From Phoronis australis (Eukaryota > Animalia > Phoronida), in assembly GCA_002633005.1 (NCBI GenBank), contig NMRA01000652.1, forward strand, positions 145,155 through 209,154: DNA of 64,000 nucleotides, written 5' to 3'. Positions 25,401-28,400 of this stretch are shown here, in pieces (the first letter of the stretch is position 1; each line of letters starts with the position of its first letter). Under the pieces are notes generated by a model, which saw only the letters and a program-made list of their open reading frames with translations, was not told the DNA's origin and searched no databases. A program made the position numbers and the translations under genes.

Positions 25401-28400
25401 AATTACCTTAAAGAGAAGAAGCTAAGATTTTCCTTTCGGAGTGCCTGAGGAAGGAAACAGTCATTGTACATTTTGATCTTTTAGTTCAGAATTGAATGAA
25501 GTAAAATGCAATAAAACGAAATACTGGTCGATAGAGATGCTTACATAACTCTTGAAGGTATTCACCTTCAATGTGGCACATCTGTCTGGCATGCATCCTT
25601 GAACTTCGTATGTTGGGTTTCTGAAATAAATGAATTCATTAGTCTAATGTACAGTTTCGCTGTAGCTTAGCATGTTGTGCTTCTTCGACCACCAACTTCA
25701 ACAAACTGGGCTAATGTCTATGGATGAATAATTTATCATTCTTAGATTGTGCCTGGGCTCAGAAGTACCTAACATTTCAAATTCAAAAACTGGGTCAGTC
25801 ATGGGAAATGTTTTCCTTCCTTTGTGAAAAGAGAGTTCTATTTAGAACAAGGTTGCCCAATGTGGTTGGCGTAATTTCTAGCATTCAGAAGATCACACTG
25901 AACATTGTACAAGTTGATGCCCCGAAGGTGACGCTCTTTCTTTGGATAAAAGGTCACGTTTTGACTACCTGTGTGGAGTAATGGTCTCGCTAAATGTCAT
26001 GACTTGTTTTTTTCACAGGACGAGCATGTCATATCGTTAGAAGAACTCTGTGAACGCCTTGGGACCGATCCAAACACTGTGAGTGAGAGCTTTTTAAACT
26101 TACCGTATGTGATGTGTATTTTTTTTGTAGAATTTTATAGACATTTTAAATTATTCCTTCTGGTAGTTATTGTGGTATGGATTTGTGGGTTCATTCTTAC
26201 TTATTGATTTAGTATTCAGGGGAGGTTGTTTTGTTGCTTGGCAACACAATTCCCTTGAAATTTCCCAGGGTAATGTCTTCCTGGTATAATGAACATTAAT
26301 TTAGTACAGGTATTATTGATACATAGTTCTCCTATATGGCTAATGTGGTCTGATTTATTTTTAGCAAGAGATTCATACACCAAATTCAGAGGCCAATTGT
26401 TTTGGAACGTGTCAAAAACAAAAAGGGAAATTGTTCAGACCGTCAATGATTTATAGAATTAACTGGGTTTTTTAGTTGTGTACACTGTTTGCAATCCAGT
26501 CGTCTAGGCCTTAAAGTGTGTAAAGAAATGTTTCAGTTAGATACAACGTAAGTAAAAAGTACAATATCTGGCTGTACCTAGTGTGTCATCATACCTGATT
26601 TGGTTAATTGCAGTTGAAATTTTGTCTAGTGTTTCAGTCCATTTGATAATGGGAGGGTTGTGTAATTTTGACGTTCGTGATTGATATTGCGTCAGGTAGT
26701 ACGGTAATTCTCCAGCGATTTGGCTCAAAAATAATTGCCAAAATTGTCATTTTACCCTTTTTCACAGGCTGGTGTCCTGGTGACTGCTACAAACAATTTA
26801 AAGTTTACTTTTAGGTGTTTTATGGCATCTACCATGTGCCGTGTTAGTAATAGACTTATTTTATCTTTATTTTTATGTAGAAATGTTACGAAATGTAATT
26901 TCACTTGTTAGCCATAGTGTGTGCTGTAGCACTGGCTGAATATTGTATTATGTACGGTAATCAAAATAGTAAGGCAGTAGTTAACTCGCCTTCTTTTGAT
27001 TTAGACTCGTTTCCCTTATGGAAGTGGTCGCAAGTCAAATGAAAGCTGATTTAATCGCTTCAAGAGAACTGACACTTGATTATTGCTTGAGACCAGGCAG
27101 TGCAAGTTGGCTGGTCAAAGTGTGTAATTTTATATGTTGACTATGGTCTGGAAGAGTAACGAGCTGTCGGTTATTTGAAAGCTCAGAAACCACTTAGTAA
27201 GGAACACGATGAAAGTAATTTCGTATCAGTGAGTAGTCTTAAAAGGGTTGTTTCTTTGACAGAACGCAGGTTTTTAGCCTCATTAAACATAAGATATAAC
27301 TAGAAATGTATAAATGTATTATTTCTTTTTGTTATTATTGTTATGCAATTATGCCACGTGTGCATGTAGGGACTCTCATTAGATGAGGCAAAACGGAAGC
27401 TGGTTCAGAATGGCCCCAACCAGCTGTCTCCGCCGAAGACTGTGCCTGAGTGGGTCAAGTTCTGTAAACAGCTATTTGGCGGCTTCTCCACCCTGCTGTG
27501 GGTGGGGTCTGCGCTCTGTTTCATGGTGTACGGCATTCAGTACGGTCGGGACGGTGAGGAGGCACCTGATGATAATGTACGCGGCAAGTCGACGACACAC
27601 TAACCCCACTTTTGTGCGACGTTGTTACCGTTTTGTTTGGTTATTTCGTTGTGTTATTTGTGTGAATCGAAATAGTCTTTTGTGACCTCCTATGGAGTGC
27701 ACTCAACTACGACTGCACTCAACTAGGCCAAACAAGGTCTTGTTCCAAATGGGCGGACTGAATGTACATGGGGTGTCATTTTAAAACGCAGTGATAATTT
27801 TACCCATTTGTTGTAATTGTCCCGAAATCACAACGGGGGAGTTACAGAGTTGGTAACATTGTCACTGTTTGTTGAAAACCATCGGCTTGAATCGAGGAAT
27901 TCACTTCAGACAGTGTGCAGTGTGGCCTAACTTTCACATCAGTCTGTACCAAGATCTGCACTTGTCTCAGATTGTCACACAGATGACACGACGAAGCCAC
28001 CTCAATGCTCACTGTGCTTTTTACTTTGTTTTGTTGATTGTTGCGTTTCGTTGCGTTCTGTTCGTCTAGGGTCTAACACCTCAGAAGGCGCGTGAGGTTC
28101 TCGAGCGCGACGGCCCCAATGAGCTGTCCCCACCCAAAACCACCCCTGAGTGGGTCAAGTTTTGCAAACAGCTGTTTGGAGGCTTTTCTACATTGCTGTG
28201 GATAGGCGCTGTCCTCTGCTTCGTTGCTTACAGTATTCAGTCGGGCACGTCAGAAGAGCCGCCTGGTGATAACGTAAGTGTCCCCTGGGGAAGGGGTGGT
28301 CTTAACGCCTTTTGAAAAAGAACTAGGGTTCCCGTCAAGACATTACCATGAAGGCATGATTTGTTTCCATTGAAATTCTGGCCTACAAGTGCCTAGCTTT

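Follow-up and report, generated by a model that had tools for sequence, protein, structure and literature searches.

The 64-kb window, by which we mean the whole stretch of Phoronis australis DNA analyzed, contains a complete Na,K-ATPase alpha gene on the forward strand, with its start codon (ATG) at 13492 and its stop codon at 41578. The full-length open frame encodes a Cation_ATPase_N domain and the DKTGT phosphorylation motif, and its nearest similarity is to Na,K-ATPase alpha, assigning it to the P2C group. The encoded pump is 81 to 83% identical to invertebrate alpha subunits (best match, 83%). A quick tree of 51 proteins placed the gene within a spiralian clade (SH-aLRT 99) and loosely beside Lingula and Watersipora, with a support of 89 that is not firm. 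Coding exon 1 (13492..13524) was located through loose ends of RNA reads before exon 2 that map there, with the frame open to the stop, and exon 2 (24000..24140) through a homology map and RNA reads. Exon 3 (26019..26078) is constitutive, and its donor is common to two versions of exon 4 (junctions 26078>27370 and 26078>28070). These versions, 4a (27370..27576) and 4b (28070..28273), are followed by three alternative exons for TM2: the minor 5a (29141..29254), the major 5b (30087..30200), and the rare 5c (30738..30851). Junction reads define 4a, 4b, 5a, and 5b; 5c was placed by its intact sequence and three reads from 5c to exon 6 in one run (X4). Exons 6 to 19 (32274..41578, by tblastn map) are single copies up to the stop codon. 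All these exons lie on the forward strand, and all six combinations of exons 4 and 5 yield open frames of 1040 to 1041 amino acids. Head to head with the pump gene is a TOM70-like gene on the reverse strand (ATG at 13379; E 5e-20 to TOM70 chains), whose start codon lies about 110 nt from that of the pump, an arrangement that suggests a shared bidirectional promoter. The region at about 53500 to 57500 is repetitive, with recurring translated motifs, and is probably a tandem repeat or a transposon relic.

Exons 4a (207 nt, 69 codons) and 4b (204 nt, 68 codons) have the layout of mutually exclusive exons: they are adjacent and homologous, of like length, both in phase 0, and bounded by intact AG and GT ends. 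Their nucleotide identity is 76% over 130 nt, far beyond chance. The donor of 4a is the nonconsensus GTACGC and that of 4b the consensus GTAAGT. Each encodes the cytoplasmic segment before TM1, TM1 itself, and the H1–H2 loop, which has 13 residues in 4a and 12 in 4b. Residues 1 to 68 of 4b align without a gap to residues 55 to 122 of the 1016-residue alpha-1 chain 3wgu_A, so that residues 57 and 68 are Q111 and N122. An earlier note on this DNA had proposed that 4a and 4b swap the H1–H2 loop, and much of its description was reproduced: the coordinates, splice ends, and phase of both exons; a canonical 12-residue loop in 4b with its 111 to 122 numbering; Q111 and N122 in both copies (by the 3wgu_A alignment); a protein identity of about 65% (45 identical residues at the best gap placement); and a block of 19 codons with, on recount, eight synonymous and no nonsynonymous differences. 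The note had read the 4a loop as 13 residues with an added Tyr and Arg. The length holds, but only one residue is inserted, with three placements that tie (R, D, or G, codons 60–62), and the Tyr is a substitution. Counted from both loop ends, 4a retains Q111, E116, E117, D121, and N122, as well as C104 and Y108 in TM1, and carries Ala at position 118. The swap itself stands, since RNA junctions show 4a and 4b to be expressed alternatives; the picture was incomplete in overlooking the triplicated exon 5 and the structure of the intron between 4a and 4b.

The expression data come from three RNA-seq runs of one study (X2, X3, and X4), 18 to 19% of each being read; more than half of the aligned reads had at least 99% identity, and a junction was listed when at least three reads from two starts supported it. 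The junction from exon 3 to 4a was covered by 12, 16, and 0 reads in X2, X3, and X4, respectively, and that from exon 3 to 4b by 16, 34, and 117. Downstream, 4a was joined to 5b by 10, 8, and 0 reads, and 4b to 5b by 33, 34, and 115 and to 5a by 2, 1, and 14 (35, 35, and 129 reads out of 4b). In total, 28 reads enter 4a and 18 leave it, precisely at its AG and GT ends, and counts from a separate read alignment of the junctions agreed within one read. The earlier note had made its proposal depend on expression of 4a, and 4a is indeed spliced in X2 and X3. Its use is sample dependent. With both junctions pooled, the 4a share was 30% in X2, 26% in X3, and 0% in X4 (0 of 246 reads); at the upstream junction, 28 of 78 reads in X2 and X3 used 4a versus 0 of 117 in X4 (Fisher p 2e-13 if reads are independent). 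Read depth over 4a in X4 was 3.5 to 5.5, the level of intron, and 4a is therefore present but not spliced in there. The genotype of X4 also differs from that of X2 and X3, so tissue, stage, and individual are confounded in this switch.

Exons 4a, 4b, 5a, and 5b were each found in RNA by both of their junctions, and 5c by three reads at one. The ten joints listed comprised the eight expected junctions and two intronic ones; none linked the two copies of exon 4, linked any two copies of exon 5, or ran from exon 3 to exon 5 or from exon 4 to exon 6. Down to the limit of three reads, and with 18 reads leaving 4a, transcripts thus contained never both copies of exon 4 and never neither. Because both copies are multiples of three, in phase 0, and free of stops, their double inclusion would remain in frame and give no frameshifted transcript for decay to remove, so exclusion should act at splicing. 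Coupling of 4a to 5b was not distinguished from chance (0 of 18 versus 3 of 70 reads, p = 1). Among read differences from 23900 to 33700, A>G exceeded T>C (24 versus 10 in X2; 26 versus 15 in X4), which could reflect alleles or A-to-I editing.

Sequence comparison assigns the divergence between the two copies to one side: 4a is the derived copy, and 4b is ordinary and ancestral-like. Among 302 homologues, 301 scored higher with 4b than with 4a. Over the 56 positions before the loop, 4a has 13 residues that occur in fewer than 10% of 216 distinct segments and 4b has none; seven of the 13 lie at positions 4 to 14 (cytoplasmic), one at 25, and five at 45 to 53 (outer TM1). In 4a, the segment before TM1 and the outer part of TM1 have diverged as much as the loop, and most of its change is outside the loop. 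Pairwise dN between 4a and 4b is 0.26 to 0.29 and dS is 1.8 to 2.1, giving a dN/dS of about 0.13 to 0.15, a rough ratio with dS near saturation. This low ratio and the unchanged 19-codon core support the view of the earlier note that both copies are under purifying selection. All 10 exonic read variants checked, which were picked among those listed, are synonymous, the one in 4a being taken from a loose-end consensus.

The loop of 4a has no counterpart among 149 distinct H1–H2 loops, of which 144 have 12 residues, three have 13, one has 11, and one has 14. Within the 12-residue class, Arg114 occurs in none, Tyr112 in one, and Ala118 in 15, several of them from named molluscs and annelids. Other animal loops of 13 residues, with Glu at 111 (P0276, P0304, P0365, P0366, and locus L048:286-603), are unrelated to that of 4a. 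Two protein searches returned no 4a-like exon among the best 120 of 272 matches and all 73 matches, respectively, with best identities of 59 to 71%; such searches need shared words, which makes this weak evidence. We also compared genomic loci, all metagenome contigs and the best 80 of 235, perhaps from few species. A second exon 4 was found in none of the 16 intron-bearing loci spanning exons 3 to 5, and a second exon 5 in none of the 14 spanning exons 4 to 6. No swap of the TM1 exon was seen in 29 protein pairs, many of which are orthologues or paralogues rather than isoforms. Alternative TM2 exons recur in animals, and from this limited sampling the 4a/4b pair looks lineage restricted.

The three TM2 exons are all intact, 114 nt long, and in phase 0, with pairwise pS of 0.57 to 0.91 and pN of 0.06 to 0.16. 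Reads joining 5a, 5b, and 5c to exon 6 numbered 0/3/14, 50/31/186, and 0/0/3 in X2/X3/X4, and 5a accounts for about 4 to 7% of reads. No junction into 5c was among the listed joints (at least three reads), leaving 5c weakly supported. The intron between 5a and 5b has a normal branch motif at −21 from 5b and lacks the layout of the 4a–4b intron described below, so the model proposed for exon 4 cannot be extended to the entire exon 5 cluster; a CTGAC motif occurs at +17 in the intron upstream of 5c. Several pairings with the flanking introns are predicted for the GC-rich start of 5b and are not distinguished from chance. Within the intron between 4b and 5a, positions 28496 to 28867 contain a 115-nt inverted repeat (76%), covered by reads of either strand and by loose ends, that is probably a small transposable element.

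The 493-nt intron between 4a and 4b is predicted to be highly structured. Its fold has a z-score of −4.8, with none of 100 shuffles as good, and four other introns gave scores of −1.4 to 0.7. The core of the prediction is a 22-bp stem, G–U pairs included, between arms at 27644..27665 and 27975..27996 on the forward strand (−31.0 kcal/mol; 0 of 200 shuffles). It outranks every other perfect helix in the 20 introns scanned, the second strongest (−29.0 kcal/mol) belonging to a repeat-like element in the next intron. The next-best partners of the two arms are weaker (−19.9 versus −33.2 and −26.7 versus −36.1 kcal/mol), and a read variant in the second arm, 27994 A>G, preserves a G–U pair, which lends the stem weak support. 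Upstream of the stem, a CTAAC motif (27597..27604, forward strand) offers a candidate distant branch point, with its A at 27603, 27 nt from the 4a donor. As judged by motif, the site falls in the roughly 50 nt after the upstream donor that distant-branch-point exclusion calls for. Only two of 21 introns have CTRAC in their first 50 nt, both of them between alternative exons, for an expectation of about 0.06 per intron, although this pattern was noticed first and tested after. Between 27603 and the 4b acceptor there are 17 AGs, all inside the predicted stem–loop, and the last 72 nt before 4b are AG free. A second, outer helix is predicted to pair the 4a donor region (27579..27599, forward strand) with about 28027–28046 (−21.2 kcal/mol; 5 of 300 shuffles). 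This is the strongest duplex between donor and 3′ end among 21 introns, and it engages a conventional TTGAT motif that lies 33 nt upstream of the 4b acceptor (−33). The predicted fold leaves the +27 motif unpaired with a probability of 0.78, the 4a donor with 0.14, and the −33 motif with 0.09. A docking and selector layout of the Dscam exon 6 type was sought around exon 4 and not found, and no orthologous 4a–4b intron was present among the best 80 of 235 metagenome loci.

We think it fairly probable that 4a and 4b are tandem-duplicate alternatives whose joining is prevented by the distant branch point together with the predicted stem, and that 4a supplies a kinetically altered pump restricted to some tissues or conditions rather than a shield against toxins. 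Under this model, the branch point at +27 would lie so near the 4a donor that the two could not be in use simultaneously. The stem would hide the 17 inner AGs, allowing that same branch point to serve the 4b acceptor. Exon 4b would be the default owing to its consensus donor.

A tentative second explanation keeps the same function for the two exons and accounts for their exclusion otherwise: 4b would rely on the conventional −33 branch motif, and the two sites would be made alternatives by the outer helix or by RNA-binding proteins on UG-rich tracts. The TTGAT is present where this mechanism needs it, the 72-nt AG-free zone precedes 4b, and the outer helix is the strongest of its kind in the 21 introns (5 of 300 shuffles). 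The predicted fold, however, pairs the −33 motif and exposes the +27 motif, and the enclosure of every inner AG by the stem is left unexplained.

With regard to function, we favor a role for 4a as an isoform that differs in pump behavior. Passages of one paper describe isoform-specific ion affinities for vertebrate Na,K-ATPases (PMC11193536). By analogy, the changes that 4a brings to the pre-TM1 segment, outer TM1, and the loop may retune the pump, and the two-by-three combinations of exons 4 and 5 may do what paralogues do in vertebrates. Exon 4a would most likely be a restricted isoform with altered kinetics or partners, and any change in ouabain affinity would be secondary.

We consider it rather unlikely that 4a is simply a tolerated duplicate, encoding a working pump that drifted under relaxed constraint and is used to an extent that varies with the individual or tissue without a distinct function. 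All divergence falling on the 4a side, the weak 4a donor, the genotype that sets X4 apart, and the absence of a 4a-like exon from other animals among the matches seen (best identity 59–71%) would fit such drift. Against it, a dS of about 2 implies that 4a has been kept, its frame intact, for a long time; the protein sequence of the 19-codon core has not changed; 4a use switches between 0 and 26 to 30%; and the intron is predicted to contain ordered structure.

The framing of the swap around cardiotonic steroids in the earlier note is so far unsupported, because the swap reaches well beyond the loop, 4a retains the named contact and resistance residues, and no exposure is known for the lineage. 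In its strongest form this reading holds that 4a is a toxin-insensitive pump whose longer, charged loop and changed outer TM1 make it bind cardiotonic steroids or palytoxin less well where tissues are exposed, 4b being the ordinary pump; we judge it unlikely. The argument of the earlier note that any difference must come from nonclassical positions overlooks P118A and the vertebrate insertions at 114/115. Passages of one study count Ala at 118 among the parallel adaptive changes of insects that feed on cardenolides (PMC5850294), and 4a has this residue. The 4a loop also permits an alignment in which an Asp is added between 114 and 115, in place and residue as in sandgrouse according to the portion of a preprint consulted (bioRxiv 10.1101/2022.09.01.506169). 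Its sample-dependent use would also fit, and its Arg114 and Tyr112 are, respectively, absent from and found once in the 144 ordinary 12-residue loops. Ala118, on the other hand, occurs in 15 of those same loops, and the two insertions in the preprint act in opposite directions, as far as that portion of it reports; its journal version is listed as retracted. Neither exon has a substitution at 111 or 122, and 4a retains Q111, E117, D121, N122, C104, and Y108. Passages of PMC11193536 single out Gln111 and Asn122 as critical for affinity and state that ouabain forms hydrogen bonds with Gln111 or Glu117. Most of the divergence of 4a is, moreover, outside the loop. The animal groups with spiralians, and we know of no cardenolide or bufadienolide exposure for that lineage; the literature searched contained no relevant report of palytoxin resistance in invertebrate pumps. 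We regard as similarly doubtful the broader idea that regulated splicing switches the toxin site of the pump, with 4a, through Ala118 and an Asp insertion convergent on the insect and bird changes, insensitive to a steroid or palytoxin-like ligand of dietary or the animal's own origin in only some tissues, the RNA stem as the switch, and the two-by-three matrix rebuilding the TM1–TM2 hairpin. Finally, that 4a is a pseudoexon or an assembly duplicate is scarcely conceivable despite its 0 of 246 exon 4 junction reads in X4 and its lack of a close database relative, because spliced reads use both copies, with 28 into 4a and 18 out at its exact ends, and because a dS of about 2 excludes an allelic copy.

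Mutually exclusive exons are a known device, and the exchange of TM1 and the H1–H2 loop seen here is a real, expressed, and regulated feature. The P. australis gene shares with other invertebrate Na,K-ATPase alpha genes the diversification of one pump gene by duplicated alternative exons. In Drosophila, the pump gene has an alternative cluster after TM6, in agreement with the database isoforms of Limulus, Tachypleus, Penaeus, Folsomia, and Schistocerca, whose differences fall in the exon after TM6; that exon is single in the P. australis gene. A passage of PMC6733596 mentions, without naming them, two alternatively spliced exons in the pump gene of insects. Database isoforms of Lingula (two pairs) and Owenia (one pair) differ only in the TM2 exon, and one Armadillidium gene model carries the TM2 exon twice in tandem. 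The P. australis gene is unlike all of these in that its duplicated exon bears TM1 and the whole H1–H2 loop and stands beside a three-copy TM2 cluster. The full-text literature searched, outside which fall most subscription papers, including key insect surveys, describes no alternative exons that encode TM1 and the H1–H2 loop. In a Plakobranchus model (P0156), about 137 residues of the C-terminal membrane region are repeated in tandem, which may reflect a multiexon alternative block or a fused neighboring gene.

Alpha-tropomyosin is one known case of exclusion by a distant branch point. Exons 4a and 4b of OGDH are another, with branch points 25 to 41 nt from the donor according to the part of PMC7969005 available; the motif here, at 27 nt, is similarly placed and likewise far from the acceptor. 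OGDH relies on a long AG-free zone, whereas the P. australis intron has 17 AGs that are predicted to be folded away. In Dscam exon 17, the same passages have RNA structure and a distant branch point acting together, as is predicted here. The intron would be a compact case of exclusion by branch point plus structure outside insects and vertebrates.

Convergent toxin resistance is a textbook property of the H1–H2 loop, whose variants usually arise by point change or gene duplication. The P. australis gene resembles steroid-resistant pumps (rat alpha-1, those of milkweed insects with duplicated genes, and those of sandgrouse and chinchilla with insertions) in that one genome encodes both a sensitive-looking and a divergent loop, and in having Ala118 and a one-residue insertion near 114/115. 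It differs from them in that the two loops arise by splicing rather than gene duplication, positions 111 and 122 are unchanged, and there is no known exposure. A loop swapped by splicing on an otherwise identical protein provides a natural, clean pair for the effects of the loop, outer TM1, and the segment before TM1 on kinetics and ligand binding, and it bears on why invertebrates without known steroid toxins retain the ouabain site.
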